In this document: in pieces, positions 37,745-64,000 of the stretch
How positions within the stretch are numbered: position 1 is the first letter of the stretch
Layout: each line of letters opens with the position of its first letter
NCBI GenBank assembly: GCA_029779535.1
Contig: JAKPAG010000117.1
Location: 1,818-65,817 of the forward strand
DNA length: 64,000 bases
Source: Pseudomonadota bacterium
GTDB taxonomy: Bacteria > Pseudomonadota > Alphaproteobacteria > Sphingomonadales > Sphingomonadaceae
Reading direction: 5' to 3'
Notes under the pieces: generated by a model
Seen by the model: only the letters and a program-made list of their open reading frames with translations
The model's database searches: none
Told to the model about the DNA's origin: nothing
Program-made: the position numbers and the translations under genes

Positions 37745-38742
37745 AGGTTGAGATCCACCAGGTTGGCGTCGACCAGGCGCGGCAGCACTTCCTTTTCGAA
37801 GCGCAGCAGGCTGGCCCACGACAGTTCGGGATCGAGCCCGCCGAGCAGCGCGTGGAAATTGATCCCCGCATTGGTCGGCTGGGTCTTGAGCCAGTCGAAG
37901 CACTGATCGGGCGTCATGACCTTGATGTTGGGCATGGCCTTCAGCGCCTCGACCGTTTCCGCCGCCCGGTAGAGCGTGTCCCCGCCGCCGCGTTCCTTGG
38001 CCCATTCGGCATAGGTGTTGGTGGCATAGGCGACATGCGGGGCGACCCGCGGCCAGTCGCGCTCGGGATCGTCGGTGATGTAGAGGAAGCTGGCGATCGA
38101 CTTGACGATCGGTTCGGGCGGCGGGAAGCCCAGCCTGGCGCGTTCCTCCGCATAGATGTCCCACAGTGCGGGATGGCCCGGAAAATACTGGTATCCGCCC
38201 TTGGCCGCGCGGATCGCCGACTTGTCGGTCGAACCGCCCATGTAGATTTTCGGCCCGCCCGGCTGGACCCCCGGCGGGGTGACCCGCACGGTGCGGCCTT
38301 CGTATTCGAACGGCTGGCCGCCCCACGCCTGCTTCAGCGTGTCGAGCGCCTTGTTCATCAGCCCGAGGCGCTTGGTGATGTCCTTGCCGAACATCTCGAA
38401 TTCGTGCGGGCGATAGCCCATGCCGGCGGTCAGCCAGATCCGCCCGTTCGAAATGTTGTCGAGCACGGCAAGGTCTTCGGCCAGGCGCAGCGGATCGTGC
38501 ATGGTCACGACCAGCGCCGAAAGGTGGACGTAGATCTTCTGCGTGACCGCGAAGATCGACGCCGCCTGGACCATCGAGCTGGGGCAATAGCCATCTTCGG
38601 CCCCATGGTGTTCGGCCAGGAACACCTGGGTGAAGCCCAGCTTGTCAGCCCAGGCGGCCTGTTCGATCGCGGTGCGATAGAGCTCGGGATGCGGTGCCCC
38701 GAAGCTGGGGCTGTTCATGTCGTAACGCAGGTTGAGCTGCAT
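37741..38742 (-). CDS. Luciferase-like monooxygenase (LLM class) oxidoreductase
   Basis: AEHHG..DGYCPS, HDPLRLAEDLAVLD.ISNGR and GMGYRPHEF motifs. Confidence 0.85.
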   Translation of the reverse strand: MQLNLRYDMNSPSFGAPHPELYRTAIEQAAWADKLGFTQVFLAEHHGAEDGYCPSSMVQAASIFAVTQKIYVHLSALVVTMHDPLRLAEDLAVLDNISNGRIWLTAGMGYRPHEFEMFGKDITKRLGLMNKALDTLKQAWGGQPFEYEGRTVRVTPPGVQPGGPKIYMGGSTDKSAIRAAKGGYQYFPGHPALWDIYAEERARLGFPPPEPIVKSIASFLYITDDPERDWPRVAPHVAYATNTYAEWAKERGGGDTLYRAAETVEALKAMPNIKVMTPDQCFDWLKTQPTNAGINFHALLGGLDPELSWASLLRFEKEVLPRLVDANLVDLNL

Positions 38743-38771: not shown

Positions 38772-41159
38772 TCAGGCGTTGACCTTCGATGCGATCCGGC
38801 CGGTCACGTCGGGCGCCTGGTAGGCCAGCTTGCGCTCGAGCAGCGATGCGATTTCCTCGGCCGAGAAACCGGCTTCGGTCAGGATCTCGACGGTGTGATG
38901 GCCCAGCCGCGGCGCCGAGCCGCTGGCGAGGCCCGGGGTCTTGGACAGCCGGTTGAACAGGCCGAGCATGCGGACGTGGCCATACATCGACTGCTTGTCT
39001 TCGATCACGCGGCCGGTCTGTTCCATCCAGTCGAACAGCAGCGCATCGTCCACCCACATCGATTCGCAGACCACTTCGGCCGGAGCCCCGGCCGCGTCGA
39101 GCGCGGCGAAGGCCTGGTCCTTGGCCTGCGGGGCAAACCAGGCATCCAGTATTGCCTTGAGGTCGGCATCGTTGGCGCTGCGATCACACGGCGTGGCAAA
39201 GCGGGTGTCGGCAGGCAGATCGGGCTGACCAATCGCGCGGGCCAGCGCGGCGAAGCGTTCGTCTGAACGGCACGAGATGCAGACCCATCCGTCGGTGCAG
39301 CGATAGATCCGGTCGAGTGCGTCGAAGCCCTGCTGCTCCTTGTCGAGGCGCAGGCCGTAGACCGGCTTCTTGTCGGCATCGAGGAAGTGTTCCGACGTGG
39401 TCCACAGGCTGGAGTGGAGCTGCGGGCATTCGATGTATTCCGCCCCGCCGCCGCGCTGCGCGCGGTTTTCCAGCGCCATCAGGATGGTCGTCGCGCCGAG
39501 GAAGCCGTTGTTATAGTCCTCGTTGCCGAACACCGAGCGATTGGGCGTGTTGCCCTCGCCGCCGCCTTCATAGAGCAGCCCGGTCCAGCCGCTGACCAGC
39601 GGGGCGAAGCTCTTGAGCAGGCTCTTCGGCCCCTGCGAACCATAGCCGGGCAGATAGACGTAGAGCAGGTTGGGGTTGATCGCCTTGAGCGCTTCGAAGC
39701 CGATGCCCAGCTTGTCGGCCTTGCCGGGGCGCAGGTTGTGGGTGATCACGTCGGCGTCCTTGACCAGCCGCAACGCGGCGGCCAGCGCATCCGGTTGCTT
39801 CAGGTTGAGCACGATGTCGCGCTTGCCGCGCGCGGCTGCATCGAAGCAATCGGGCAGCGGCCGCATCTGGTCCCCGCCCGGGGTTTCGAGCTTGATCACG
39901 TCGGCGCCCAGGTCGTTCAGCAGGCGCCCACCGAAGCCGACCGCGAAGAACGAGGAAAAGTCGATGATCTTGATCCCTTCAAGCGGGCGCTTGATCGGCT
40001 TGACCGGGGCAGCGGGAACGCGCGCCGGGGCGGCCTGGAATTCGGCCAGTCGGGCATTGTCCGCACCCACCGCCGGAGCCGGCGTGGGAGTGGAGCAAGG
40101 CGTGTCGGCCATGCGCGCGGCCGGGGCCGCCTGATAGATCGTGCCGAAATCGGGATCGGGGATGGCGACGCGCATACCGACGAATTCGACCTGCGGATCA
40201 AGCAGGATCTCGCCCGGTTCGAGCACCGGCAGGGCAGCCACGTCGGCGGCCTGGAACAGCTCGATCCATTCATCGCGCGGGCGGGCCTTGAACGCTTCGA
40301 ACACTTCGACGCGGGCGACCTGGTATTCGTCTTCGTTCAGCGGCACGGCCATTTCCGGGCCGTCGACGGCCTGGACCCGGTCCCCGAAGCCGAGGATATC
40401 GAACGCCGGCTTGAACCCGCCCGACCCGGTGTGGAACTGCAGGAACTTGCCATCGGCGCATTCGAACATGCCGGTCACCAGGCGGACGTTGCCAAACCGG
40501 TCCATCGCGCCGGAATCGCCCTTCTTGATGTAGGAAATGCCTTCTTCCTGCCACCAGTGGTTCATCGGGCTCTGCGCCAGGAACGCATCGAGCAGGCTGG
40601 CTTCGACTTCCTGGCCGGTGCCGATCATCCGCCGCGCGCGCACCGCCGCCAACGAGGAAATCACCGCCAGGAAGGCCTGGCCATAGTGCAGCGCCGGATG
40701 GCCCAGATACATCGGCCCGGGGCGGTGCGAACTGCCCTTGTCGACCATCGTGCCCAGCTTCGCCGCCGCCAGCGATTCGCCGTAGGGACGGCCGCTGAAC
40801 GGCGTGTCGCGGCCATAGGCGTTGAGCGTGCAGACAACCAGCGCCGGGAACTCGGCTTCCAGGGTTGCCGCATCCAGCCCGAGGCGCGCGGCTTCGGCAT
40901 CGTCCAGCGAGTGAATGAAGATGTCGGCCCCGGCCAGCAGGCGCTTCACTTCGTCCGTCTGGGTGGCGATATCGAGCTCGACGCTGCGCTTGCCGCGATC
41001 CCAGCCCTTGCGGGTCAGGTCATGGGCAAACCAGTTTCCGCCGACCGGCTCGACCTTGATCACTTCGGCGCCATGATCCGCCAGCAACATACCGGCGATC
41101 GCGCCGGGCATAACGGTGGCAGCCTCAATCACGCGCAAATGGGCAAGCGGTCCGGCCAT
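38772..41159 (-). CDS. Tandem two-domain CaiB/BaiF CoA transferase
   Basis: Two repeats of L.D.GA.VIK.E..GG (LADHGAEVIKVEP, LNDLGADVIKLETPGGD). Confidence 0.85.
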   Translation of the reverse strand: MAGPLAHLRVIEAATVMPGAIAGMLLADHGAEVIKVEPVGGNWFAHDLTRKGWDRGKRSVELDIATQTDEVKRLLAGADIFIHSLDDAEAARLGLDAATLEAEFPALVVCTLNAYGRDTPFSGRPYGESLAAAKLGTMVDKGSSHRPGPMYLGHPALHYGQAFLAVISSLAAVRARRMIGTGQEVEASLLDAFLAQSPMNHWWQEEGISYIKKGDSGAMDRFGNVRLVTGMFECADGKFLQFHTGSGGFKPAFDILGFGDRVQAVDGPEMAVPLNEDEYQVARVEVFEAFKARPRDEWIELFQAADVAALPVLEPGEILLDPQVEFVGMRVAIPDPDFGTIYQAAPAARMADTPCSTPTPAPAVGADNARLAEFQAAPARVPAAPVKPIKRPLEGIKIIDFSSFFAVGFGGRLLNDLGADVIKLETPGGDQMRPLPDCFDAAARGKRDIVLNLKQPDALAAALRLVKDADVITHNLRPGKADKLGIGFEALKAINPNLLYVYLPGYGSQGPKSLLKSFAPLVSGWTGLLYEGGGEGNTPNRSVFGNEDYNNGFLGATTILMALENRAQRGGGAEYIECPQLHSSLWTTSEHFLDADKKPVYGLRLDKEQQGFDALDRIYRCTDGWVCISCRSDERFAALARAIGQPDLPADTRFATPCDRSANDADLKAILDAWFAPQAKDQAFAALDAAGAPAEVVCESMWVDDALLFDWMEQTGRVIEDKQSMYGHVRMLGLFNRLSKTPGLASGSAPRLGHHTVEILTEAGFSAEEIASLLERKLAYQAPDVTGRIASKVNA

Positions 41160-41205
41160 CAATCCTCTCCTTCTCTCGCGACGACTCCTGTCGCTCGCGT
41201 GAAAT

Positions 41206-41221
41206 TTGCACCAAGGTGAAA
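41206..41221. promoter_or_regulatory. YTGCA-N6-TG.AA operator in the caiB/tetR divergent promoter
   Basis: TTGCA-CCAAGG-TGAAA. Confidence 0.45.
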
Positions 41222-41312
41222 TGTTGTGCAACCAATTTCAGACCATGTTCTAAAATTGTTTGTGCCGTCAAGACTTGTGCGGCAGTCAGTATTGTGTTCG
41301 GGGGAGAATCAG

Positions 41313-41993
41313 ATGGCGCGGGGACCTGAAAGCGAGGCCTATGACAGCGAGGCAATGAAGGAGCGCCGGCGGCGTATCCTTGATGAAGCGCGCGAAATGA
41401 TCGCTGAATTCGGGGTTGACGGGCTGACAGTGGCCGCGCTGGGCAAGCGCGCCGGGGTGGCGAAGCAGACGCTGTATTATGCCTTTGGCAGCAAGGATGA
41501 GATCGTCGCGGCGGCGATCCTTGACTATTTCGAGACGTCCGAAGGCAAGATCGATTATCGCGGTGCGCCCGGATCATTGACGCGCCTGATCGAACGGATG
41601 GTCGCCATCGTGACCCGCAACCTGGGTATCCGCAACTATATCGCGGCGCTCATCGCGATCTGGTACGGTCGCTCGCCGGTCCTGTGGAATGCCTTGTTCG
41701 ACACCGCGTCAACCAGCCACCGCAAGGTCATTGCCGCCCTGGTCGAACAAGATGCGCTTCAGCCGTGGGTCGAGCCCGACGAGTTGATCGAGGCCATGGT
41801 CGGACAGACGATCCTGACCACCAATGCCTGGCTGCAAGGCCGCATTGCCGACGAAGACCTGATTGACCGGCAGGTCATGGCCCTGATGCAACTGCTGGCC
41901 GGCGTCACGCGAGAACCGGTGAGCGGCGAGGTGAAACGGATCGCCGCCGCCGTGCGCGAAGGCGGCGCGAAGGCCTACCTCGCCTCGCTCTGA
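41313..41993 (+). CDS. TetR/AcrR family regulator
   Basis: RRRRILDEA...GLTVAALGKRAGVAKQTLYYAFGSKDEI HTH. Confidence 0.9.
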   Translation: MARGPESEAYDSEAMKERRRRILDEAREMIAEFGVDGLTVAALGKRAGVAKQTLYYAFGSKDEIVAAAILDYFETSEGKIDYRGAPGSLTRLIERMVAIVTRNLGIRNYIAALIAIWYGRSPVLWNALFDTASTSHRKVIAALVEQDALQPWVEPDELIEAMVGQTILTTNAWLQGRIADEDLIDRQVMALMQLLAGVTREPVSGEVKRIAAAVREGGAKAYLASL

Positions 41994-43294
41994 CGGGCGG
42001 AGACGGCGGCATTCAGCCGCGGCAGCGCCAGCCGCATCGCCGCCAGCCCCAGCGCCGCGCCGCCGATCACCACCATCGCCAGCGACATGCCGACCTTGGC
42101 CTGGTCCTGGAACAGGAAGTCGGTCAGCGCGCCGACGATCGCCGGCCCCGCGCCAAAGCCCAGCACGTTGAACACGAACATCATCATCCCGAGCAGCTGC
42201 CCGCGCATCGCGCTGGGGGCCAGCAGGGCGAAGATCGCCGAGCCATAGACGATGAACGGCACCGTGATCAGCTGAATCAGTGCATAGCAGGCCAGGAACA
42301 GGTAAGGATTGGACACGAAGAACGCGGCCACGATCGCCGGCGACAACGCCAGGATGGTCCAACTGTAGAACCGCAGGTGCGCATCGCGCATCCCCCGGGT
42401 GTAGAGCCGGTCAACGATCCGCCCGCAGGCGATCAGCGCCAGCGCACCGAAGATGTTCATCGCCGACAGCGCCACGCCGTAACGCGCCGGGTGCCAGCCG
42501 AAATGGCGTTCCATGTAGGTCGGCACCCAGCTGGTCAGCGAATAGCCGACCAGCGCCATGCACGAAAAGGCGAAGGTCATCAGCCCCAGCAGGGCGGCGT
42601 GCTGGCGCACGAAGCCCCACAGCTCCGCCCGGCCCGGCCGCGCCGCCCCCTGCCCGCGCCGGCCCGGATCGGGAAAGCTCAGCGCCAGGAACATCAGCAC
42701 GAAACCCGGCAGCGCGATCAGCGCGAATGTAATCTGCCAGTAGGATGCCGGGCCATGCACCGGCCAGTCGATCCATTCCAGGGATTTGGCAAAGGCAATG
42801 GCAAAGCCGCCCAGCCCGAACGACACCGCCGAACCGGTCTTGCCGGCGGACTGGAATACGCTGGTCGCCACGGTCACCTTGCCGGGGGGAAAGGCATCGC
42901 CGATCAGCGAATAGGCCGAGGGCAGAAGCGCCGCCTCGCCAATGCCGACGAACACGCGCGCCAGGATCAGGCTTTCAAAAGTGGTGGCAAAGCCGCAGGC
43001 GAAAGTCGCCAGCGCCCAGACCAGCACCCCGCCGAAAATCACCCAGCGCCGCGAAAAACGGTCCGCCGCCCAGCCCAGCGGCACGCCGAACACCGCATAG
43101 GCCAACGCGAAGCTGGGGCCGAGCACCAGGCTCATCTGGAAGTCGGTGAGCGCCAACTGGGCCTTGATCGGCGAGACCAGCATCGAGATCGTCAGCCGAT
43201 CGAGCCAGGCCAGGACGTAAAGCATGAACAGCGCGGCGACCATCCACCACGCCCGCCCCAGCGGCACCGGTGCGCGTTCAGCCTGCTGCTCCAT
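41975..43294 (-). CDS. MFS transporter (ACS/Spinster-like)
   Basis: WLDR..ISMLVSPIKAQLALTD, GWAADRFSRR and ARVFVGIGEA motifs. Confidence 0.85.
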   Translation of the reverse strand: MEQQAERAPVPLGRAWWMVAALFMLYVLAWLDRLTISMLVSPIKAQLALTDFQMSLVLGPSFALAYAVFGVPLGWAADRFSRRWVIFGGVLVWALATFACGFATTFESLILARVFVGIGEAALLPSAYSLIGDAFPPGKVTVATSVFQSAGKTGSAVSFGLGGFAIAFAKSLEWIDWPVHGPASYWQITFALIALPGFVLMFLALSFPDPGRRGQGAARPGRAELWGFVRQHAALLGLMTFAFSCMALVGYSLTSWVPTYMERHFGWHPARYGVALSAMNIFGALALIACGRIVDRLYTRGMRDAHLRFYSWTILALSPAIVAAFFVSNPYLFLACYALIQLITVPFIVYGSAIFALLAPSAMRGQLLGMMMFVFNVLGFGAGPAIVGALTDFLFQDQAKVGMSLAMVVIGGAALGLAAMRLALPRLNAAVSARQSEAR

Positions 43295-43322: not shown

Positions 43323-43341
43323 TAAATCAATTGGATAATGC
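43323..43341. promoter_or_regulatory. 19-bp operator in the MFS/tetR divergent promoter, repeated at 62167-62185
   Basis: TAAATCAATTGGATAATGC versus TAAATCATTTGGATAATGC (18 of 19 identical); pseudo-palindrome centred on CAATTG. Confidence 0.6.
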
Positions 43342-43372: not shown

Positions 43373-44038
43373 ATGGCAAGACTACATTCCAGCGAAAGTG
43401 ACGGCCCTGCCGCGCCCGAAGGCGCCGAGGCGCTGAAGCGCGCCGCGATCCGCCTGTTCGCCGAACGCGGCATCGACGGGGTAACCGTGCGGCAGATTTG
43501 CCAGGCCGCCGGGCAACGCAACCACGGCGCGGTCGGCTATCATTTCGGGACCAAGGAAGCGCTGGTGCGCGAACTGGTCGCGGACGGGGCGAAAATCATC
43601 GACGAGCGCCGCAATGCCCTGCTCGACCGGCTGGAAGCGGCCGGCGGGCCGGCCAGCGTGCGCGAAGTGATGGATGTGATCATCTTTCCCGCGCTCGACC
43701 TGGACGGCGCCGGGCACGACGATTTCTACCTGCGCTTCACCCATATCCTCAACATGACGCACCGCGAGTTGTTCCTGGATGCGGTGGGCAAGCGCTGGAA
43801 CCGTGGCTACCAGCGCTGCCTGGAGCACCTGCGGCGGCTGATGCCGGAGATGGCGCCGGCCATGGCCAACCAGCGGCTTGGATTTGTCGGCACCTATGTT
43901 GCGCAGGTCCTGGCGCTGCGGCAGGCGACCTTGGCCGATACCAGGCGCCGCCATGCCACCTGGCCGGCCGAACGGACCCTGCGCCATCTTGCCGTGACCG
44001 CGGCCGCGCTGATCATGGCCCCGCCGGGCGAAGACTAG
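43373..44038 (+). CDS. TetR/AcrR family regulator
   Basis: AAIRLFAERGIDGVTVRQICQAAGQRNHGAVGYHFGTKEAL HTH. Confidence 0.9.
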   Translation: MARLHSSESDGPAAPEGAEALKRAAIRLFAERGIDGVTVRQICQAAGQRNHGAVGYHFGTKEALVRELVADGAKIIDERRNALLDRLEAAGGPASVREVMDVIIFPALDLDGAGHDDFYLRFTHILNMTHRELFLDAVGKRWNRGYQRCLEHLRRLMPEMAPAMANQRLGFVGTYVAQVLALRQATLADTRRRHATWPAERTLRHLAVTAAALIMAPPGED

Positions 44039-49840: not shown

Positions 49841-51160
49841 TCAGTTCTCCGGTTTGTCGACCAGGCGGCGCATGTCGGCCCGGCCCAGCGCCATCAGGAT
49901 GGCGGAAATGGTAATCACGCTGGCGACAAGCACGATCAGCGAGGTGCCCAGCCGCATCGGATCGCCCAGCACCTTGTCGGTCACGAAACCGACCATCGAG
50001 TTGCCCAGCACCATACCGATCAGCCCGGTTACCAGCACGAAGATGGCCGAAACGCGGCCACGCAGCGCGGGCGGGGTGACGATCTGCGATGCGGCCGGCC
50101 CCATCGACGCGGCCGACATGACCAGCAGCATGTAGCAGCCGAACAGCACCACGGTCAGCCAGGGGCTGGACACCAGGTAGGCGGCGATCGCGAAGGGCGC
50201 GGCCAGCACCATGGTAACCAGGCACCACAGCAGATGGGCATCCTTGCGCCCCTTGCTGAACATCCGGTCCACCATCTTGCCGTGGAACGGCAGGCTGAGC
50301 GCGGGCACCATCTGCGCCACGCCCATCGCCAGGCCGATCTGCGCCGGGGTCCAGCCGTAGATGCGGGTCAGGTAGGCGGGGGTCCACAGCTGGAGGCCGA
50401 TGGTCACCGTATAGACCAGCCCGATTCCCAGGATGATTGCACTGAAGGCGCGCGGGTGCGCCAGGATGAAGCGCAGCGCCTCGCCGTATCCGCCCCCGTC
50501 CCGGGTCGGTGCGGGCGCGCGGTGGCGCTTGGGCTCGGGAAACAGGAACACCAGGAAGGCGGTCAGCACGCCGGGAATGCCGGTGACCAGGAAGGCCTGC
50601 TGCCACGGCGCAAAGCCCGACATGCCGGGCCAGTGCGAGATCGCCCCGTCCAGCACCGCGCCGACCAGCGGTCCGCCCAGCAGGAAGGTGATCCCCGCCC
50701 CCATCACCCCGCCCATGACGAAGATCGACATGGCAAAGGACAATTTGTTCGGCGGGAAGCTGTCGCCAATGATCGAATAGGCCCCGGTGGTGTAACCGGA
50801 TTCCCCGGCGCCAACCAGCGCGCGGGCGGCAATCAGCGCGCCGAAGGTGCCGGCCAGGCCGCAGCCCGCCGCGCCCAGGCTCCACACCACGACGCACAGG
50901 AACAGCACCCAGCGGCGGCTCTTGCGATCAAGCGCCAGCCCCACGGGAATCGCGCAGATCGAATAGAGCACGGCAAAGGCCAGCCCTTGCAGCAGGCTCA
51001 TCTGGAAATCGCTCAGCCCCAGGTCGCGCTTGATCGGTTCGACCATCAGGGCAACCAGATAGCGATCCGCCAGGCTGCGGATGTACAGCAGGAACAGGAT
51101 CGCCACGGTCAGCCAGGCGACCAGCGGGCGGGGATAGGTGTGGGCCGTCGATTGGGTCAT
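49841..51160 (-). CDS. MFS transporter (ACS/Spinster-like)
   Basis: LADR..VALMVEPIKRDLGLSDFQMSLLQG, ALDRKSRR and ARALVGAGES motifs. Confidence 0.85.
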   Translation of the reverse strand: MTQSTAHTYPRPLVAWLTVAILFLLYIRSLADRYLVALMVEPIKRDLGLSDFQMSLLQGLAFAVLYSICAIPVGLALDRKSRRWVLFLCVVVWSLGAAGCGLAGTFGALIAARALVGAGESGYTTGAYSIIGDSFPPNKLSFAMSIFVMGGVMGAGITFLLGGPLVGAVLDGAISHWPGMSGFAPWQQAFLVTGIPGVLTAFLVFLFPEPKRHRAPAPTRDGGGYGEALRFILAHPRAFSAIILGIGLVYTVTIGLQLWTPAYLTRIYGWTPAQIGLAMGVAQMVPALSLPFHGKMVDRMFSKGRKDAHLLWCLVTMVLAAPFAIAAYLVSSPWLTVVLFGCYMLLVMSAASMGPAASQIVTPPALRGRVSAIFVLVTGLIGMVLGNSMVGFVTDKVLGDPMRLGTSLIVLVASVITISAILMALGRADMRRLVDKPEN

Positions 51161-51801
51161 TTGCGGCTAGCCTCCGCGCGTTCGGGATCGAATTTCGGGC
51201 GTTCCAGCGCGAACTGGTCAGTCCCGCGCGCATACCAGCCGGCGCCGTGCGTGCGCCCGACCAGCCCCATTGCCGGGGTGTCGAGATAGAACTTGTCCGG
51301 ATCGGTAACGAACTGGTCCTGGATATGGGTCATCAGCACTTCACCGATCAGCACGGTCTGCAGGCTGCCGATGTCCAGCGCGGTCACCTTGCGGCATTCG
51401 AAGCTGACCGGAGCCGTGGCGATGCGCGGCGGCTGCACCACGCTGCTGGGCGTGGTCTGGATCCCGGCATAGTCGATCTCGCTGACATCGGCCGGGGCAT
51501 CGACGCTCGACAGGTTCATCGCCGGGGCGTCGGCCTCGCTGACCAGGTTGACCACGAATTCGCCGGTTTCGATGATGTTGCGCGCCGTATCCTTGAGCGC
51601 GCGGGTGCGAAAGTCCTTGAGCAGGCCCAGCACCACCAGCGGCGGCTCGATCCCGCAGACGTTGAAGAAGCTGTAGGGCGCGGCATTGACCAGCCCGGTC
51701 CCGTTCACGGTGGTTACCCAGGCGATCGGACGCGGAGTGACCGTGGAATTGAGCAGCTTGTAACGCGCCCCCAGCGGCAGCGCGCGCATATCGAATTGCA
51801 T
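51157..51801 (-). CDS. Flavin reductase (DIM6/NTAB) family protein
   Basis: PRPIAWVTT...VNAAPYSFFN and KDTARNI..TGEFVVN motifs. Confidence 0.85.
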   Translation of the reverse strand: MQFDMRALPLGARYKLLNSTVTPRPIAWVTTVNGTGLVNAAPYSFFNVCGIEPPLVVLGLLKDFRTRALKDTARNIIETGEFVVNLVSEADAPAMNLSSVDAPADVSEIDYAGIQTTPSSVVQPPRIATAPVSFECRKVTALDIGSLQTVLIGEVLMTHIQDQFVTDPDKFYLDTPAMGLVGRTHGAGWYARGTDQFALERPKFDPERAEASRK

Positions 51802-54656: not shown

Positions 54657-54706
54657 TCAGCCTGTTCCCAATGGTTGGGCGCCGGATTCGCTCCGCCACC
54701 TGATAG

Positions 54707-54722: not shown

Positions 54723-54806
54723 TTTTCGCGTGAAGTCAACGAAGCCGGGTGCTATGTCCGACAGCCTTGCACAAGGACCCGGAAGGGCCACTCGGAAAGG
54801 ATTGCC

Positions 54807-55478: not shown

Positions 55479-57551
55479 CTATTGCCCCTTGTCGTCCACG
55501 GGCACCACGGGCTTGGTCGCAGCCGCCACTTCGCGCGCGCGGCTGCGCAGGTAGTGCGCGATTCCCGCCAGCGTGCGCTCATCCACTTCGCCAAAGGCCG
55601 GCATCCCCCGGCTGAGCAGCGGCCCTTCCTTGACCAGCTGGGTGAAAGTGGGGACATCCAGCGGCACGAGCGAACGCAGCAGGTCCGGCGCGCTGCCGCC
55701 CGATGCGGCATTGGCCCCGTGGCAGCCGGCACAGCGATCGGCGTAAGCCTCGGCCCCCAGCCTGACCAGTGCCGGATCGACCCGGAACTTCGGATCGTCG
55801 GGAATGGTCAGGTCAGGCTTCTGCGCGGGCGGCAACTTGTCGGTCCCGCCCAGGGCAAAGGCCAGCACGCGCCACTGCTGGGTGCGATAATTCCATTCCC
55901 CGCCCGGCAAACCCTGCGCGGTGGCAAAGCGTGATCCGGCGACCACCGCGATATATTGCTTGCCCCCGGCGCGGTAGGTGATCGGCTGGGCCATGACCGC
56001 GGTCTGTGCGTCGAACTGCCACAGCAGCTTGCCGCTGTTCGCGTCGAGCACGGTAAATTCGCCCGAACCCCGCCCTTGCAGCAGCAGGCCTCCGCCGGTC
56101 GTGGCGGTGCCGCCGCCGCCGCGCGGGCCGATCATCGGGATGCGCCAGGCCTCGCTTTGCGTCCTGGGGTTCCAGGCCAGCAGGAACGAAGTGGGCGCGC
56201 GCGGCTTGAGATCGGGCGGGGGCGTTCCCTGCCCGTTCGAGATGCGCTGGCCGTCCTTGTATTTCCAGTCCGACAGCTTGCCGGGCGGATCGACATAGAC
56301 CCGGCCCTGGTCCATCGCCGGGATGTAGACCAGCCCCGAGGCCGGGTTGTAGCTCATAGCCTCGATGTTGTGCGCCCCGAACGGCGAGGGATAGACGATC
56401 GCCGCCTTGCCGCCGGGATAGCGCGCCTCGGGGTTTTCGACCGGGCGGCCGGTCTTGAGGTCGATCGAGCTGGCCCAGGTGGTCGGCACGAACGGCTTGG
56501 CCGAGAGCAGCTTGCCGTCCTTGCGGTCGATCACATAGAAAAAACCGTTCTTCGGCGCGTTCATCAGCACGTCGTGCTTCTGCCCGTTCACGTCGAAGCC
56601 ATCGACCAGTTCGATGTCCATGTCGGCGTTGAAGTCCCAGCTCTCGCCGGGGTTCACCTGGTAGTGCCACAGGTACTTGCCGGTATCGGCATCCAGCGCG
56701 ACGATCGAACAGACGAACAGGTTGTCGCCGCCGCCGGGCGAGCGGATCTTGTGGTTCCACGGGCTGCCGTTGCCGGTGCCGATGTAGAGCCGGTTGTATT
56801 TCGGATCATAGGCCATGGCGTTCCACACCGTGGCCCCGCCACCGAACTTCCACCATTCGCCGGTCCAGGTCTTGGCGGCCATCTTCATGGCCTCGTCCTC
56901 GAACCCTTTCGCCGGATCGCCGGGCGTGGTGTAGAACCGCCACGCCTGCTTGCCACTGGCCTGGTCATAGGCGGTGACATAGCCGCGGACCGGGGCATAG
57001 TCCGCCCCGCCGTGGCCGATCACCACCTTGTCGCCGTAAACCCATGGCGCGCCGGTGATATAGCGCTGGTCACCCGGCGTGGTGGTCTGCGCCGACCAGA
57101 CTTCCTTGCCGCTTTTCGCGTCGATCGCGATCAGCCGCCCATCAAGCGTGCCGGTGAATACCTTGCCGTTCGCATAGGCGATGCCGCGGCTGCCCCAGGC
57201 TCCGCGCAGCGTCACCCCGGCGCGTTCGCGGGTGTGGCTGTCAAAGTCCCACAGTTGCTTGCCGGTGGCGGCGTCGAGCGCGAAGACATGGCTGTCCCCG
57301 GCCGCGTAATAGAGCACCCCGTCCACCGCGACCGGCGCGGTCAGGCTTTGCCCGCCAACGTCGATGTCGTGGTGCCAGGCCAGGCCAAGCTGGCCCGCAT
57401 TGCCGGTGTTGATTTCGGCAAGCGGGCTGAAATGGGTGGTGTCCGGACCGTCATAATCGGGCCAGTCATCATTCTGCGCCCCGCCCTGCCCGCAAGCGGC
57501 CAGGGCCAGCGCCAGGGCACCGATCGCGAAATTCCGCAGCATTCCAGTCAT
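55479..57551 (-). CDS. Quinohemoprotein (PQQ + heme c) dehydrogenase, lipoprotein
   Basis: Lipobox LAAC, WDFN, NAPKNGFFY and CAGCH motifs. Confidence 0.88.
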   Translation of the reverse strand: MTGMLRNFAIGALALALAACGQGGAQNDDWPDYDGPDTTHFSPLAEINTGNAGQLGLAWHHDIDVGGQSLTAPVAVDGVLYYAAGDSHVFALDAATGKQLWDFDSHTRERAGVTLRGAWGSRGIAYANGKVFTGTLDGRLIAIDAKSGKEVWSAQTTTPGDQRYITGAPWVYGDKVVIGHGGADYAPVRGYVTAYDQASGKQAWRFYTTPGDPAKGFEDEAMKMAAKTWTGEWWKFGGGATVWNAMAYDPKYNRLYIGTGNGSPWNHKIRSPGGGDNLFVCSIVALDADTGKYLWHYQVNPGESWDFNADMDIELVDGFDVNGQKHDVLMNAPKNGFFYVIDRKDGKLLSAKPFVPTTWASSIDLKTGRPVENPEARYPGGKAAIVYPSPFGAHNIEAMSYNPASGLVYIPAMDQGRVYVDPPGKLSDWKYKDGQRISNGQGTPPPDLKPRAPTSFLLAWNPRTQSEAWRIPMIGPRGGGGTATTGGGLLLQGRGSGEFTVLDANSGKLLWQFDAQTAVMAQPITYRAGGKQYIAVVAGSRFATAQGLPGGEWNYRTQQWRVLAFALGGTDKLPPAQKPDLTIPDDPKFRVDPALVRLGAEAYADRCAGCHGANAASGGSAPDLLRSLVPLDVPTFTQLVKEGPLLSRGMPAFGEVDERTLAGIAHYLRSRAREVAAATKPVVPVDDKGQ

Positions 57552-57579
57552 CGATGTGCTCTCCCCGGCGCTGTGCGCC

Positions 57580-59115
57580 TTATCCCCCGATCGTGCGGTC
57601 GCTCGGCCAATAGCGCGCGCGCAGGGTCTTCTTGTTGATCTTGCCCATCGCATTGCGGCCGATGTCGTCGACGAAATCGTAGCTGCGCGGGCACTTGAAC
57701 CCGGCCAGGCTGGCGCGGCAGAACGCGTTCAGTTCCTCGGCGCTCGGCGGGTTGGCCGGATCGCGCGGGATCACCAGCGCTTTCACTTCCTCGCCCATTT
57801 CGGCATTCGGCGCGGCCAGCACCGCCACGTCGGCAACGCCGGGATGGCGCAGCAGCACCTGCTCGCTTTCGGCCGGGTAGATGTTCACCCCGCCCGAAAC
57901 AATCATGTCGGACACGCGGTCGGTGATGAACAGGTAGCCGTCTGCATCGACATAGCCAACCTCGCCCAGGGTGAACACGCCCGGCGCGATGTGCGCGGCG
58001 GCGGTCTTTTCCGGATCGCCGGCATAGATGATCCCGCGCCCGGTGCTATCGCGGAAATAGACCTGGCCTTCCTGGTTGGGGCCCAGTTCCTGACCATCGG
58101 GGCCGATGATCACAGTGGTAAAGGGCGGCAGCGCCTTGCCCACCGAGCCCGGCCGTTCCAGCCATTCGGGCGAAGTGATGAAGGTGGCCGATCCCGCCTC
58201 GGTCCCGCCATAGGCTTCGACCAGCACCGGACCGAACCATTCGATCATCGCCTTCTTGACCTCGCGCGGGCAGGCCGCACCAGTGTGGGCAAGCCGCTGC
58301 ATCGAGGAGACGTCGTACCTGGCCCGGACCTCCTCCGGCAGCGACAGGAAGCGCTGGAAGTGGGTCGGGACCATGACCGATCCCTTGACCTGGTACTTTT
58401 CGATCGCCGCCAGCGCGGCTTCGGGATCGAAATGGCCCATCACGACCAGCGCGGTGCCGGCAAACACGTTGCGCGCCATGCCCAGCGGGCCGGTGTGATA
58501 GAGCGGGCCGACCGCCAGCCCCGGCGAGGGGGTCGCCTTGGGGCGGACGATGTCCGCGAATTCGCGGATCGTCGCGGCTTCGGGGAAATATTGCGGCGGG
58601 GTCTCGGTCGCCTTGGGCTTGCCGGTGGTGCCCGAGGTGTAGTGCAGGTGCGGCAGCGGCTTCACATTGGCGTCCGGCTCTGCATCCGAAGCGGTGGCCA
58701 GCCAGTCGTCCCACGCGGTGACGCCCTCGGTCGGCGGGCAGCGCCAGCCGACCACGGTCTTAACCCCCACTTCGCGCGCGGCTTCCAGCCCGGCGGCCAG
58801 CGTTTCCGGGCCGATGAACAGCACCGAAGCGCCCGAATCCTGCAGGATGTAGACCAGTTCGCCTGCGGTCAGGTGATAGCTGACCGGCACGGTCGACACG
58901 CCCGCTTCCAGCCCCGCCAGATAGGCGATCACCGTTTCGGCGGCATTGGGCGCGAAGACGGCGGCGCGGCGCGTGACATCAACCGCCGCGCCAAGGGCAT
59001 TGGCTGCGCGGTTGAGCACCGGATCGAGCTGGTTCCAGCTCAGCTCGATCCGCTCGTCCGCCAGCGCCAGGCTGTCACGCTTGTCAGCCGGAACTGAAAG
59101 CAGCGTCTGGCTCAT
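57580..59115 (-). CDS. Acyl-CoA synthetase (AMP-forming)
   Basis: YTSGTTGKPK, EAYGGTE and DRVSDMIVSGGVNIYPAE motifs. Confidence 0.88.
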   Translation of the reverse strand: MSQTLLSVPADKRDSLALADERIELSWNQLDPVLNRAANALGAAVDVTRRAAVFAPNAAETVIAYLAGLEAGVSTVPVSYHLTAGELVYILQDSGASVLFIGPETLAAGLEAAREVGVKTVVGWRCPPTEGVTAWDDWLATASDAEPDANVKPLPHLHYTSGTTGKPKATETPPQYFPEAATIREFADIVRPKATPSPGLAVGPLYHTGPLGMARNVFAGTALVVMGHFDPEAALAAIEKYQVKGSVMVPTHFQRFLSLPEEVRARYDVSSMQRLAHTGAACPREVKKAMIEWFGPVLVEAYGGTEAGSATFITSPEWLERPGSVGKALPPFTTVIIGPDGQELGPNQEGQVYFRDSTGRGIIYAGDPEKTAAAHIAPGVFTLGEVGYVDADGYLFITDRVSDMIVSGGVNIYPAESEQVLLRHPGVADVAVLAAPNAEMGEEVKALVIPRDPANPPSAEELNAFCRASLAGFKCPRSYDFVDDIGRNAMGKINKKTLRARYWPSDRTIGG

Positions 59116-60341
59116 CAGATCGCCTCCGGAATGCGGGCGGCCGAAACCAGCTTGGCCAGCTGGCTCATGTGCACTTCATCCGGGCCATCGGCCATGCGCA
59201 GGTAGCGCGCGGTACCGAAGATCGTGGCGAGCGGGAAGTCGCGGCTGAAGCCGATCGCGCCGTGGACCTGCATGGCGCGGTCGGCGACGGTCTGGGCCAT
59301 CTGCGGGGCGACGATCTTGATCGCGGCGATCAGGTCCTTGGCCACCTTGTTGCCATAGCGGTCCATCGCGTCGGCCGCCTTGAGCGTGAGCAGGCGGGCC
59401 TGCTCGATCTCGCAGAAGCTCTTGGCGATGTCCTGGCGCACGCTGCCATGATCGAACAGCTTGCGGCCGAAGGCAACGCGCTGGTCCGCGCGCTTGCACA
59501 TCAGGTCAAGCGCGCGCTGCGCCATGCCGACGATGCGCATGCAGTGGTGGATGCGGCCCGGCCCGAGGCGGCCCTGCGCGATCTCGAACCCGCGCCCTTC
59601 GCCCAGCAGCAGGTTTTCCTTGGGCACGCGCACGTTGGTGAACTGGATTTCGCAGTGGCCACCGGGCGAATGCAGCGCTTCCAGCACGTGCAGCGGACGG
59701 ATGATCTCGATCCCCGGCGTGTTCGCGGGAATGATCACCTGGCTGTGCTGCTGGTGCTTCGGCTTGTCCGGATTGGGGGTTCGGCCGAGCAGGATGTAGA
59801 CCTTGCAGCGCGGGTCCATCGCGCTCGAAATCCACCACTTGCGCCCGTTGATGACATAGTCGTCACCGTCCGCCACGATCGAGCATTCGATATTGGTCGC
59901 GTCCGACGAGGCGACGCCGGGTTCGGTCATCACGTAGGCCGAACGGATTTCACCATTGAGCAGCGGCTTCAGCCACTTTTCCTGCTGGTCCGGCGTGCCG
60001 TACTTCGCCAGGATTTCCATGTTGCCGGTGTCGGGCGCCGCGCAGTTGAAATATTCGGACGCGCCCAGCACCCGGCCCATCAGTTCGGCCAGCGGGGCAT
60101 ATTCAAGGTTGGTCAGCCCCGGCGACCATTCGCCGTATTCGTGCGGCAGGAACAGGTTCCACAGGCCCAGTTCGCGGGCCTTTTCCTTGAGCTTCTCGGT
60201 GCCCGGCCAGGGCTGCCACAGGGTGGCGGGATCATGCAGGAAGTGGTCGCGCTCTTCCTCGATCGGGAAGACGTATTCCTTCATGAAGCCGTCGACGCGT
60301 TCGCGCAGGTCCTGAACCTTGGCGCTGTACTGGAAATCCAT
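59115..60341 (-). CDS. Acyl-CoA dehydrogenase, ACAD10/11-LvaC type
   Basis: LWNLFLP, LTNLEYAPLAE, FNCAAPDTGNME, AQGRLGPGRIHHCMR and ADGPDEVH motifs. Confidence 0.88.
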   Translation of the reverse strand: MDFQYSAKVQDLRERVDGFMKEYVFPIEEERDHFLHDPATLWQPWPGTEKLKEKARELGLWNLFLPHEYGEWSPGLTNLEYAPLAELMGRVLGASEYFNCAAPDTGNMEILAKYGTPDQQEKWLKPLLNGEIRSAYVMTEPGVASSDATNIECSIVADGDDYVINGRKWWISSAMDPRCKVYILLGRTPNPDKPKHQQHSQVIIPANTPGIEIIRPLHVLEALHSPGGHCEIQFTNVRVPKENLLLGEGRGFEIAQGRLGPGRIHHCMRIVGMAQRALDLMCKRADQRVAFGRKLFDHGSVRQDIAKSFCEIEQARLLTLKAADAMDRYGNKVAKDLIAAIKIVAPQMAQTVADRAMQVHGAIGFSRDFPLATIFGTARYLRMADGPDEVHMSQLAKLVSAARIPEAI

Positions 60342-60356: not shown

Positions 60357-61100
60357 TCAGAGGGTCACGCCGCCATCGACCACAAGGGTCTGGCCGACGA
60401 TGAATGCGGAAAGCGGCGAGGCGAGGAACAGCGCCGCGCCAGCCATGTCTTCGACCGTGCCAAAGCGGCCGAGCGGGATCTTGGCGAGCGAGCGTGCACG
60501 CCGTTCGGCATTGTCCATCGTCACCTTGGTCATCTTGGTATCGACCAGGCTGGGGGCGATGCCATTGACGCGGATGCCCTGCCCGGCCCAGGCCTGGCCC
60601 AGCGTGCGAACCAGCTGCACCGCGCCGGCCTTGGACGCGGCATAGGCCGGATTGCCCATGGTCGAGCGGAACGCCCCGATCGAGCTGATCACGATGATCG
60701 ATCCCTGCACGGCGGCCAGATCGGCGTGGAACCGCTCGGAAATCTGCATCACGCTGGCAAGGTTGACCGCGACGACCTTGGCAAAGCCTTCGGGCGCGAA
60801 TTCCTGGCGCTTGTACAGCACCATGCCCTGCGAATGGACCAGCACGTCCAGACCATCGGCAAAGGGGGCCGGGGCCGCCGCGATCGATTCCGGATTGCCG
60901 CAATCAACCTGGGTGTAACCGATGCCGGTCAGGTCCGAACCTTCTTCGGCGGAATAGTCCGCCGCGCTGGCGCGGGTGCCCCAGACATGGACCTGCGCGC
61001 CGCGCACGCGGAACGCATGGGCGATGCCATTGCCGATCCCGCTCGATCCGCCGACGACAAGCACGCGCTTGCCGGTGAAATCCAATTCGTTTCCGTTCAC
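60357..61100 (-). CDS. Short-chain dehydrogenase/reductase
   Basis: GGSSGIG, YAASK and IRVNGIAPS motifs; GTG overlaps the APH stop. Confidence 0.88.
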   Translation of the reverse strand: MNGNELDFTGKRVLVVGGSSGIGNGIAHAFRVRGAQVHVWGTRASAADYSAEEGSDLTGIGYTQVDCGNPESIAAAPAPFADGLDVLVHSQGMVLYKRQEFAPEGFAKVVAVNLASVMQISERFHADLAAVQGSIIVISSIGAFRSTMGNPAYAASKAGAVQLVRTLGQAWAGQGIRVNGIAPSLVDTKMTKVTMDNAERRARSLAKIPLGRFGTVEDMAGAALFLASPLSAFIVGQTLVVDGGVTL

Positions 61101-62143
61101 AAAACCCCCTCTGCAATCCATTTGCGCGCGCGCTCCAGCAGCCAGACGGCCCGGGCGTGCAGCTTGTCTCCGGTTTCCTTGGGCGCCTTGCCGGCACAGG
61201 CCCGCGCGTGGGTGCCTTCCAGCAGGATGCCCAGCTTGTAGCAGGCGAACACCCCGTACCAGCCGACCGCGTCCAGCGAGCGGGCGGAGCGCGCCGCATA
61301 GTGCGCGACCAGTTCCGCCGCGCTGGGAAAGCCGATCCACGGCGTGACCGACGTGATCGAACTGTCCGAACCGTCGGGCCAGGTTGCCAGCAGCCAGCCC
61401 AGGTCAACCAGCGGATCGCCCAGCGTTGCCAGTTCCCAATCGACGATCGCGGCCAGTTCGGGCGCATCGCTGCGAAACATCACATTGGCGAGGTGATAGT
61501 CGCCGTGCAGGATGCCCGGCACGAACGACGCGGGGCGATTGGCATCAAGCCATTGCCCTACCGCGCGCACATCGCCCAGCTCGCCGGGTCCCGGCCAGCC
61601 GACCAGTTCAGCATAGGAATCGAGCTGCGCCTGCCAGCGGCCAACCTGCCGTTCAAGAAAGCCTTCGACCTTGCCGAACCCGTCCAGCCCCAGCGCGAAC
61701 GGATCGAGCGCGTGCAGCGCGGCCAGTCCTTCGACCATCGACAGGCCCATGCGGTGCTGCGCCTGGGCCGTGCAATGCGAATCGGGCAGGCCCGAAGTGG
61801 CGTTGAACCCCTCGATCGGCTCCATCAGGTAGAAGGCCGCGCCCAGCACGTCCTCTGCCCCGCAGGCCGCGATCAGCGCGGGGTGCGGCACGGCGCTGCC
61901 GGCCAGCGCGCCCAGCAGCCGCGCTTCGCGCCGCATCGTTTCGTTGCTGCCAGCACGCAGGTGCGGCGGCGGGCGGCGCAGGACATAGTCGCGCCCCGCG
62001 CGGGTAAAGCGCAGCAGCACGTTCTGCGTGCCGCCAGCCAGCTCGCGCACCTGTTCGATCGGCCCCGAACCCAGCCCCTGGCCGTCCATCCAGCCGGCCA
62101 GTACTACCAGGTCGACGCCTGCCACTTGCACACTCTCACCCAT
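61097..62143 (-). CDS. APH-family phosphotransferase, ACAD10/11 kinase-LvaA type
   Basis: GGTQN, YVLRRPP, LHGDYHLAN and DWELATLGDPLVDLG motifs. Confidence 0.85.
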   Translation of the reverse strand: MGESVQVAGVDLVVLAGWMDGQGLGSGPIEQVRELAGGTQNVLLRFTRAGRDYVLRRPPPHLRAGSNETMRREARLLGALAGSAVPHPALIAACGAEDVLGAAFYLMEPIEGFNATSGLPDSHCTAQAQHRMGLSMVEGLAALHALDPFALGLDGFGKVEGFLERQVGRWQAQLDSYAELVGWPGPGELGDVRAVGQWLDANRPASFVPGILHGDYHLANVMFRSDAPELAAIVDWELATLGDPLVDLGWLLATWPDGSDSSITSVTPWIGFPSAAELVAHYAARSARSLDAVGWYGVFACYKLGILLEGTHARACAGKAPKETGDKLHARAVWLLERARKWIAEGVL

Positions 62144-62166
62144 GAATCAGGAGCATCCTGCATTTT

Positions 62167-62212
62167 TAAATCATTTGGATAATGCACTTGACGATACTGC
62201 ATTGCAATGCAA
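62167..62212. promoter_or_regulatory. Dual operator region between the APH operon and fbiC
   Basis: TAAATCATTTGGATAATGC (62167-62185), TTGAC (62188-62192) and CTGCA-TTGCAA-TGCAA (62197-62212, containing the perfect palindrome TGCATTGCAATGCA). Confidence 0.6.
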
Positions 62213-62285
62213 TTTTTACAGGAACAATAAGTGCCATCGCCCGGCTCTTGCCGGGCCCTTGGAGAGGCTGGCAAAAGACCCGCGA

Positions 62286-64000
62286 ATGATTGCGAATCCG
62301 CCCCCCTTGCCCGCCCCCGAGGCGCATGCGCTGGTCGATGCACCGCTGCCCGGGCTGCTGACGCGTGCCGCAGCCGTGCGCGACAGCGCGTTCGGCGTGA
62401 ATCAGACCTGGTCGCCCAAGGTCTTCCTGCCGCTGACCCAGCTGTGCCGCGACCTGTGCCACTACTGCACCTTCTCGCGCCCGCGCCCCGGCCAGCGCGC
62501 CTACATGACGCCTGACGAGGTGCTGGAAGTGGCCCGCGCCGGCGCCGCCGCCGGCTGCACCGAAGCGCTGTTCACCCTGGGCGACAAGCCGGAACTGCGC
62601 TTTGCCCAGGCCCGGCGCGAGCTGGCCGAACTGGGCCATGCCACGACGCTCGACTATCTCGAGGCTATGTGCCGGCTGGTAATCAAGGAAACCGGCCTGA
62701 TCCCCCACGTCAACGCCGGGGTAATGGACGCGGCCGACATCGCCCGGCTGCGCCGGGTTTCAGCCTCGCAGGGGCTGATGCTGGAAACGGTGGCTGACCG
62801 GCTGGGGGAAAAAGGCGGAGCGCATTACCGCTCGCCCGACAAGGTGCCAGCCGTGCGGCTGGCCACGATCCGCGCGGCTGGTGAACTTAAAGTGCCTTTC
62901 ACCACCGGCATCCTGATCGGCATCGGCGAAACCCGCGCCGAACGGATCGATGCGCTGCTGGCAATCCGCGAGCTGCACGCCGAATACGGCCACATTGCCG
63001 AAGTGATCGTCCAGAACTTCCGCGCCAAGTCGCGCACGCCGATGGCCGATGCGGACGAACCGGACATGGACGACCTACTGTGGACCATCGCCGCGGCGCG
63101 CCTGATCCTGCCGCCGGATGTCACCGTGCAGGCCCCGCCGAACCTGGCCGACGCGATGTTCCCGCGCCTGATGGACGCCGGGATCAACGACTGGGGCGGG
63201 ATCAGTCCGGTCACCCCCGATCACGTCAATCCCGAACGCCCCTGGCCCGCCGTGGACAAGCTGCGCGCCGCGACCGAGGCCGCCGGCCGCCGGCTGGTGG
63301 CGCGCCTGCCGGTCTATCCCGGCTGGACCGGCCCGGACTGGCAGGACGCCGCGATCCTGCCGCTGATTGCCGCCAGCAGCGACGCCGAACACTATGCCCG
63401 CGCCGATGCCTGGTCCCCCGGCCTGCCGCTGCCGCCCCAGCCGGAACCGTCACGCGGCGCCTGTTCGCCCCACATCGCCCGCCTGATCGAACGCGCGCAG
63501 GCCGGCGAAGCGCTGGACGAGGATGACATCGTCGCCCTGTTCGCGGCGCGCGGACCGGACGTCGAACACGTCTGCGCCGGGGCCGACGCGCTGCGCCGCG
63601 CCACCCGGGGCGACGAAGTGACTTTCGTCGTCAACCGCAACATCAACTATACCAACATCTGCGCCCACGCCTGCGGGTTCTGCGCCTTTTCCAAGGGGCG
63701 CGGGGCCGACAACCTGCGCGGCAAGCCCTATGACCTCGACCTGTCCGAAGTCGCCCGCCGCGCCCACGAGGCCGTGGCCCGGGGCGGGACCGAAGTGTGC
63801 ATGCAGGGCGGGATCCATCCGGCCTACACCGGCGAAACTTACCTCAAGCTGCTCGGCGCGGTGAAGGCGGCGGAGCCGGGCCTCCACATCCATGCCTTCA
63901 GCCCGCTGGAAGTGCGGCACGGCGCCGAAACGCTCGGCCTTAGCCTCGCAGATTACCTGACCCGGCTCAAGGCGGCGGGGCTGGGCTCGCTGCCCGGCAC
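62286..64000 (+). CDS. fbiC: Bifunctional FO synthase (CofG-CofH fusion), runs off the window end
   Basis: Own translation: SPKVFLPLTQLCRDLCHYC (CofG radical SAM), LFTLGDKPE, DAGINDWGGISPVTPDHVNPE, then in the same frame VNRNINYTNICAHACGFCAFSKG (CofH). Absent from the track because no stop codon lies inside the window. Confidence 0.9.
   Translation, partial: MIANPPPLPAPEAHALVDAPLPGLLTRAAAVRDSAFGVNQTWSPKVFLPLTQLCRDLCHYCTFSRPRPGQRAYMTPDEVLEVARAGAAAGCTEALFTLGDKPELRFAQARRELAELGHATTLDYLEAMCRLVIKETGLIPHVNAGVMDAADIARLRRVSASQGLMLETVADRLGEKGGAHYRSPDKVPAVRLATIRAAGELKVPFTTGILIGIGETRAERIDALLAIRELHAEYGHIAEVIVQNFRAKSRTPMADADEPDMDDLLWTIAAARLILPPDVTVQAPPNLADAMFPRLMDAGINDWGGISPVTPDHVNPERPWPAVDKLRAATEAAGRRLVARLPVYPGWTGPDWQDAAILPLIAASSDAEHYARADAWSPGLPLPPQPEPSRGACSPHIARLIERAQAGEALDEDDIVALFAARGPDVEHVCAGADALRRATRGDEVTFVVNRNINYTNICAHACGFCAFSKGRGADNLRGKPYDLDLSEVARRAHEAVARGGTEVCMQGGIHPAYTGETYLKLLGAVKAAEPGLHIHAFSPLEVRHGAETLGLSLADYLTRLKAAGLGSLPG

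Follow-up and report, generated by a model that had tools for sequence, protein, structure and literature searches.

In bacteria outside the Actinobacteria, the genes for the deazaflavin coenzyme F420 were described in operons of the order fno-cofE-cofD-cofC-fbiC and variants of it (Ney et al. 2017, as reviewed in PMC8498797). Here we consider such genes in a member of the Sphingomonadaceae, in which fbiC, the gene of a fused CofG-CofH FO synthase, lies at the end of a stretch of 64,000 nucleotides (hereafter the window: contig JAKPAG010000117.1 of assembly GCA_029779535.1, positions 1,818 to 65,817) and next to a putative catabolic operon that begins with a kinase gene. Other described systems also bear on this locus. 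The npd cluster for picrate and dinitrophenol in Rhodococcus and Nocardioides includes an Fno of its own (NpdG) and luciferase-like hydride transferases that depend on F420H2 (Heiss et al. 2002, as cited in PMC8498797), and the 3PG-F420 cluster of Paraburkholderia (Mycetohabitans) rhizoxinica belongs to a bacterium that makes more F420 in symbiosis (Braga et al. 2019, bioRxiv 10.1101/670455; PMC8498797). Modules of a 4-hydroxyacyl-CoA kinase and an acyl-CoA dehydrogenase (ACAD) are known from the lva operon of P. putida and from mammalian ACAD10/11 (PMC12440821). According to a 2021 review, experimental work on F420-dependent enzymes of bacteria had been confined to the Actinobacteria, and the two Alphaproteobacteria examined contained only traces of F420, suggesting a niche-specific role (PMC8498797). 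Our non-exhaustive literature search yielded nothing specific on F420 in sphingomonads, and no report of F420 genes under a catabolic repressor there.

Based on gene order, on the spacer in front of fbiC and on the comparison with relatives, we hypothesized that a TetR-family repressor controls the F420 operon and the kinase operon, that both are co-induced, and that F420H2 feeds luciferase-like proteins (LLMs). We give this reading as a whole a probability of about 0.6. Here, fbiC heads a tightly packed fbiC-fno-cofE-cofD-cofC operon whose predicted products make FO, convert it to F420 and reduce F420 with NADPH, and the presumed promoters of this operon and of a kinase-SDR-ACAD-ligase-quinohemoprotein operon adjoin each other and point in opposite directions. 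A 19-mer in the fbiC/kinase spacer, and again at the promoter of the TetR gene itself (43373-44032), would most likely be bound by that TetR, which would keep a transporter gene, the kinase operon and F420 synthesis jointly repressed; its release by a substrate or a pathway intermediate would lead to joint induction. F420H2 would then feed the LLMs, among them a TIGR03619-class enzyme encoded on contig C56 and possibly the LLM encoded at 37741-38742. Both of these LLMs are paired with family-III CoA-transferases, and therefore their substrates may be CoA thioesters. The identities of the genes, the completeness of the operon, the uniqueness and conservation of the 19-mer and the synteny are observed, whereas we infer the TetR binding, the induction and the identity of the F420H2-consuming reaction.

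The FO synthase gene and the operon downstream

The open reading frame of fbiC begins with ATG at 62286 and reads past the end of the window. The full protein of 793 amino acids is encoded at positions 2104-4485 of L001, as we call the rest of the contig (the window is G000:C79:1818-65817, and a window coordinate equals the L001 coordinate plus 60182). It matched NF006687, the model of bifunctional CofGH, with 1098.4 bits (curated cut-off 1018), and the fragment inside the window alone reached 771.8 bits. Both half-models were matched end to end, TIGR03550 by the CofG half (499.5 bits, cut-off 213.35) and TIGR03551 by the CofH half (540.3 bits, cut-off 374.1). An earlier reading of this DNA from its letters alone (the sequence-only reading) had proposed a CofG-CofH fusion with two radical-SAM CxxxCxxC motifs, and this was borne out, since the NF006687 score is above its cut-off and both motifs were located (Table 1). 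The gene at the window end is thus confirmed as that of a genuine fused FO synthase, and the formation of FO itself, with tyrosine and 5-amino-6-ribitylaminouracil as precursors, is predicted.

Past the window end, the gene order on the + strand of the same contig is fbiC-fno-cofE-cofD-cofC. The sequence-only reading had named cofC, cofD, cofE and fno as the genes to look for downstream; all four are present in one operon with fbiC, and all four were above the curated NCBIfam equivalog cut-offs against which they were scored. A convergent gene of a CaiB-type CoA-transferase closes off the operon, and the whole genome (3.36 Mb) has a single fno and a single fbiC. By its gene content, the locus is a complete predicted route to F420 with NADPH-dependent recharge, and F420 is predicted to be present in the cells. 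The same four genes indicate F420 synthesis and not that of FO only. The sequence-only reading had taken a lack of cofC, cofD and cofE as grounds against its own proposal, and this objection falls away. A role of FO by itself, as the antenna chromophore of a photolyase, would suit the one photolyase that the genome encodes (contig C96), but the presence of fno, cofE, cofD and cofC behind fbiC in the operon makes it very nearly untenable, and this use was rejected on gene content.

The spacer between fbiC and the kinase gene

As the sequence-only reading had claimed, fbiC is divergent from the neighbouring operon, the first gene of which, encoding an APH-family kinase, lies across a spacer of 142 nt. 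This spacer contains the 19-mer, a predicted TetR-type operator, and a second copy lies between the genes of the TetR and of an MFS transporter about 19 kb away (Table 1). No third copy was found in the 3.36-Mb genome at ≤4 mismatches, and no match at ≤3 mismatches appeared in 100 shuffles of the window. The 19-mer is thus common to the promoter region of the putative regulator itself and to the fbiC/kinase spacer, and it is kept in relatives, namely at loci L104, L105, L110 (two copies), L111, L002, L126, L130 and L131. The TetR in question is 57% identical to its orthologue in L104, which has the PF00440 and TetR_C_30 domains (the former an N-terminal helix-turn-helix), and it matches solved TetR-family repressors; no solved TetR was close enough to give a hint of its ligand.

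The aligned promoters have one order of elements: the 19-mer, CTTGAC(G/T), about 10 nt, (C)ATTGCAATG or TTGGCAATG, and a GATTTT-like hexamer. In seven aligned promoter regions CTTGAC(G/T) was unchanged at the -35 position. The conserved core of the 14-bp palindrome in the promoter spacer has the same promoter position in relatives. The palindrome is missing at the TetR/MFS site and is therefore a second element, separate from the 19-mer. Two regulon operators ahead of fbiC had been proposed in the sequence-only reading, and part of this stood, as the 19-mer is specific and the palindrome is present. The part that did not stand was the TGCA motif as a regulon-wide operator. The strict pattern YTGCA-N6-TGCAR has 2 sites in the window against 0.43 expected, a number that was equalled in 8 of 100 shuffles, and the eight other copies listed earlier are degenerate, with just a loose TGCAR-wwTT tail in common. 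The pattern was accordingly dropped as the operator of a 30-gene regulon, and the wider regulon supposed to stand behind it is without statistical support.

No riboswitch or other RNA element of the 5' untranslated region was matched in Rfam within 61900-62500 at E ≤1, and the fold of the fbiC leader was not unusual (z = -1.5). At 62239-62256 (GCCCGGC-TCTT-GCCGGGC) the leader has a stem of 7 perfectly matched base pairs closed by a loop of 4 nt, with no T run after it; this element may be a remnant of the excision of tetR.

Pairing among relatives and candidate users of F420

The distribution of these genes was investigated in 400 genomes of the same family, representing 112 genera (the family sample), and in other loci, one of them from a metagenome-assembled genome of Sphingobium (L002). 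The closest relatives of the FbiC are found in sphingomonads, at about 70% identity, followed by those of other Alphaproteobacteria and of Chloroflexota (56-66%). The gene fbiC was present in 54 of the 400 genomes and 27 of the 112 genera, and in only 1 of 6 other congeners searched. F420 is therefore accessory here, in agreement with the sequence-only reading, which had denied it a housekeeping role. The FbiC matches of the family fell into two bands of identity to the query, about 66-70% and 57-62%, and several genomes, G333, G242, G299, G349 and G262 among them, have one FbiC from either band.

The kinase operon was divergent from fbiC-fno in seven other loci (L002, L100, L104, L105, L109, L110 and L111), which represent five genera of the family sample and the Sphingobium genome; L104 and L105 belong to one genus, and L100 to G050, a sister species. 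A TetR gene on the fbiC strand lies between the kinase gene and fbiC in L002, L104, L105 and L110, and its product is 52-58% identical to the TetR of the window. Upstream of fbiC, a TetR gene was also present in a fifth locus, L102, where the stretch fetched showed no kinase operon. In the relatives whose TetR gene lies between the kinase gene and fbiC, the MFS gene is inside the kinase operon. In L104 only 1 nt separates the stop codon of tetR from the ATG of fbiC, suggesting that both are transcribed as a single unit. L104, L105 and L110 each have the 19-mer, with 1 mismatch, precisely in the gap that separates tetR from the kinase gene, and the second copy of L110 lies upstream of an F420-class LLM gene. 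Overall, tetR and the kinase operon lie on either side of this operator in four of the five loci. We read the TetR with its 19-mer as the native regulator of the kinase operon, and suggest that within one sphingomonad clade of FbiC the transcription unit of tetR took in the F420 genes. In the genome of the window and in G050, tetR and the MFS gene would later have moved 19 kb off, leaving fbiC directly behind the operator.

All eight linked FbiCs fell into one sphingomonad clade (support 100/99), where they were scattered over the deep branches and interspersed with ten unlinked FbiCs, and the tree forced at least 3 changes between the linked and unlinked states. The simplest reading of this tree would be a single old origin of the pairing with later losses. 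Around the constant pair of kinase operon and fbiC-fno, the TetR gene is present or moved, the MFS gene is inside or outside the operon, cofEDC is present or absent, and the downstream genes differ; such variation around a constant pair argues for selection. In G272, G242 and G333 the linked unit consists of fbiC-fno only, with single cofD and cofE genes elsewhere; the last two of these genomes have another fbiC besides the linked one. An extra FO synthase and reductase kept beside the kinase operon are hard to explain as an accident.

The pairing could nevertheless be one of mere neighbours, in which an ordinary proteobacterial F420 operon owes its place beside the kinase operon to inheritance with a shared island, F420 serves unrelated enzymes, and there is no co-regulation of any consequence. 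The F420 operon occurs with no kinase module nearby in many sphingomonads whose FbiCs belong to the same clade (L101, L103, L106, L108 and L112-L119), fbiC is missing from half of the genomes that have the kinase operon, the pairing was found in 0 of 78 other best fbiC loci outside the sphingomonads, and a single clade of linked FbiCs would allow a single origin. On the other hand, the operator abuts the -35 box of fbiC and is otherwise unique to the TetR locus, the pairing survives different flanks, positions of TetR and MFS, and presence or absence of cofEDC at 64-80% protein identity in the five sampled genera and the Sphingobium genome, and in some genomes the linked fbiC-fno is a second copy. 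We therefore regard this explanation as unlikely.

Six LLMs are encoded in the genome, and LLM oxidoreductases outside the kinase operon are the likely users of F420; the two types examined were confined to fbiC-positive genomes. The clearest candidate is encoded on contig C56 (L120:13998-14930), after a family-III CoA-transferase gene. It scored 210 bits (cut-off 166.9) against TIGR03619, the F420-dependent class of Rv2161c, and Mer, Fgd and hydroxymycolate dehydrogenase are among its relatives of known structure. Its orthologues lie inside the fbiC clusters of L104, L105 and L110, and the LLMs c11 and c12 of relatives reached 201-223 bits against the same model. Of its homologues in 9 family genomes, all 9 were in fbiC-positive genomes and 8 in kinase-positive ones. 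The region around this gene in L120 (G000:C56:10000-29999), at about 1400-6260 and 12765-14930, is paralogous to the 37-44 kb part of the window: it has a double CoA-transferase (64% identical), an MFS protein (34%) and a TetR (51%), and further on the CoA-transferase followed by the TIGR03619-class LLM. No copy of the 19-mer was found in this cluster.

The LLM of the window lies downstream of a double family-III CoA-transferase gene and is a candidate user of F420, tied to it by co-occurrence with fbiC only: its homologues occurred in 13 family genomes, all 13 of them fbiC-positive. In G104 (L128:3976-10553), an fbiC-fno pair lies divergent to the genes for orthologues of this LLM and of the double CoA-transferase; the FbiC of this pair is 58% identical to that of the window, below every linked FbiC. 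By its gene order, G104 seems to show another case in which the supply of F420 is coupled to a catabolic operon. In G349 a homologue of the window LLM (41% identity) directly follows fbiC-fno. Between the double CoA-transferase gene and the divergent TetR gene next to it, an inverted repeat (TTGCAC-N14-GTGCAA, 41206-41231) is likely the own operator of that TetR (41313-41993), distinct from the 19-mer.

F420 might also be co-induced as protection, with F420H2-dependent reductases detoxifying reactive aldehydes, enals or quinones that accompany the substrate. The operator common to both operons, the location of the presumed F420 users outside the kinase operon and the promiscuous detoxifying F420H2-dependent reductases of Actinobacteria (PMC8498797) would all agree with this. 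Of the families that detoxify in Actinobacteria, however, the genome has no match to the FDOR families PF04075 and PF12900, and one match to PF01243 (contig C58); the PF04075 negative is weak, since the control for this family matched 0 of 14 control genomes. Moreover, the candidate LLMs are in operons with CoA-transferases, suggesting defined CoA-ester substrates. We thus consider protection improbable.

Several observations weigh against our proposal of a common repressor and LLMs fed by F420H2. Related genomes are not independent samples, and no probability was attached to the synteny counts. The orthologous kinase operon was found in 32 family genomes, 17 of them without fbiC, so that the pathway needs no F420 in general, and no known F420 enzyme family was found among the kinase, SDR, ACAD, ligase and quinohemoprotein genes. 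The claim of the sequence-only reading that F420 is dedicated to the lva-like pathway is left unproven by both results. In G003, G287, G001, G376 and G198 a TetR gene is divergent from kinase-SDR-ACAD genes and F420 genes are absent; G376, which has no fbiC, carries a recognisable 19-mer. The dyad symmetry of the 19-mer is weak. A scan for consensus sigma-70 promoters called nothing around the presumed fbiC promoter, the assignment of which therefore derives from the alignment. The C56 LLM, as the clearest F420 client, is on another contig and behind a different TetR gene. The window LLM scored 91.3 bits against TIGR03619 (cut-off 166.9), level with an FMN-type model (91.9 bits), was below every F420-LLM cut-off, and has FMN enzymes as its nearest solved relatives in the PDB; it is treated here as a candidate user only and not counted in the F420-dependent class. 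A Flavin_Reduct family gene lies inside the catabolic cluster; its product could serve an FMN-dependent two-component monooxygenase, and this rivals F420 as an explanation of the window LLM.

Among the parts of the proposal, the narrower claim that F420 supply would be under the repressor of the kinase operon is better supported by the arrangement of operator and genes, whereas the substrate inducibility of fbiC would follow from architecture only. Tentative, and in our view possible rather than probable, is the fuller claim that F420 of sphingomonads is substrate-induced, with the TetR sensing a pathway of the 4-oxo/4-hydroxy-acid type and turning on FO synthase, Fno and the enzymes of the tail, and F420H2 driving LLMs on CoA thioesters supplied by the adjacent family-III CoA-transferases.

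Within the catabolic cluster, a SnoaL_4 domain (about 54900-55442, +) was found at the C-terminal end of a long spurious open reading frame (51873-55442) antisense to the PQQ dehydrogenase gene. It probably marks a genuine short gene of SnoaL-like type, located between the two quinohemoprotein genes. The F420 clusters of L104 and L109 likewise come with SnoaL genes.

Table 1. Features of the fbiC locus and of the associated catabolic genes; positions refer to the window unless they carry the prefix L001
Feature	Position	Strand	Evidence or remark
fbiC, fused CofG-CofH FO synthase, first 571 of 793 codons	62286..64000	+	NF006687 profile match
Radical-SAM motif 1, CRDLCHYC, CofG half, aa 54-61	62445..62468	+	CxxxCxxC; PF04055 match
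Radical-SAM motif 2, CAHACGFC, CofH half, aa 459-466	63660..63683	+	CxxxCxxC
fno/npdG	L001:4475-5149	same as fbiC	231.9 bits, cut-off 149.8; 11-nt overlap with fbiC
cofE, probable GTG start at 5152	L001:5152-5931	same as fbiC	259.3 bits, cut-off 180.65; 2-nt gap after fno
cofD	L001:5928-6860	same as fbiC	288 bits, cut-off 257.45; 4-nt overlap with cofE
cofC	L001:6857-7432	same as fbiC	156.1 bits, cut-off 105; 4-nt overlap with cofD
19-nt TetR-type operator (predicted), TAAATCATTTGGATAATGC	62167..62185		23 nt from kinase start codon, 2 nt from fbiC -35 box
Second copy of the 19-mer, 18/19 identical	43323..43341		between MFS and TetR genes
TTGACG, presumed fbiC -35 box; AATTTT (62211-62216), -10-like hexamer after 17-nt spacer	62188..62193	+	promoter alignment
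Perfect 14-bp palindrome TGCATTGCAATGCA in promoter spacer; conserved core CATTGCAATG	62198..62211		unique in window
TetR-family regulator, candidate regulator of fbiC	43373..44032	+	best match in the genome to the TetR between fbiC and kinase gene in relatives
MFS transporter	41981..43294	-	60% identical to MFS gene inside kinase operon of relatives
APH-family kinase, first gene of divergent operon	61097..62143	-	PF01636, 146 bits
SDR reductase; probable GTG start at 61100 overlapping kinase stop (GTGA)	60357..61100	-	profile matches
ACAD family protein	59115..60341	-	profile matches
Acyl-CoA ligase	57580..59115	-	profile matches
PQQ-type quinohemoprotein dehydrogenase	55479..57653	-	also after ligase in L100, L110, L111, L130, L131
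Luciferase-like oxidoreductase, candidate F420 user	37741..38742	-	downstream of double family-III CoA-transferase gene
Double family-III CoA-transferase gene	38772..41231	-	upstream of window LLM
Different TetR gene, divergent from CoA-transferase/LLM genes	41313..41993	+	own gene, not the TetR at 43373
Flavin_Reduct family gene	51157..51801	-	family match; inside catabolic cluster

Significance and comparison with described systems

The locus offers a testable handle on why some Proteobacteria make F420, as it combines a short predicted operator, a candidate repressor and a partner operon with guessable chemistry; two small LLM families, found in the family sample only in fbiC-carrying sphingomonads, are a further handle. 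Sphingomonads are culturable and many are genetically tractable, and therefore the role and timing of F420 in Proteobacteria are directly testable in them. If F420 synthesis is indeed substrate-induced, F420 would for the first time have a defined physiological role and a defined regulator in Alphaproteobacteria, possibly with a new class of F420-dependent acyl-CoA reaction, and such induction could explain why laboratory cultures of other Alphaproteobacteria contained only traces of F420. A cheap inducer, if found, could be tried for a higher yield of F420 in a Gram-negative host.

Among the described systems, the npd cluster is the nearest functional analogue, since it too is a catabolic cluster tied to Fno and LLMs. 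The npd cluster is substrate-regulated. As summarised in the review, it has no genes for making the cofactor and occurs in Actinobacteria, where F420 production is widespread, whereas here the biosynthesis genes would be inside the putatively regulated unit and the F420-type LLMs are outside the operon. The 3PG-F420 cluster of P. rhizoxinica resembles the present locus in being a proteobacterial set of F420 genes with an output that depends on conditions, which was observed there and is predicted here. There, symbiosis is the trigger and none of the known F420 enzymes is encoded; here a defined putative repressor site and several candidate LLM users are present. As in the 4-hydroxyacyl-CoA modules, genes of a kinase, an ACAD-family protein, an SDR and a CoA ligase are present in the partner operon. 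To our knowledge, no such module has been described as linked to deazaflavin synthesis, and at this locus the link to F420 is one of position or of putative regulation.

In comparison with the non-actinobacterial F420 operons as reviewed, the locus has the same five genes; its FbiC is likewise fused, its CofE has a single domain, and Fno is the sole recognisable F420 reductase. It differs in that fbiC comes first and not last, and in that a predicted TetR operator and a divergent catabolic operon lie in front, with tetR directly upstream of fbiC in relatives. As judged from its genes, the set itself is thus an ordinary non-actinobacterial F420 operon, and what is added here is an explicit predicted operator and a candidate repressor in a sphingomonad.

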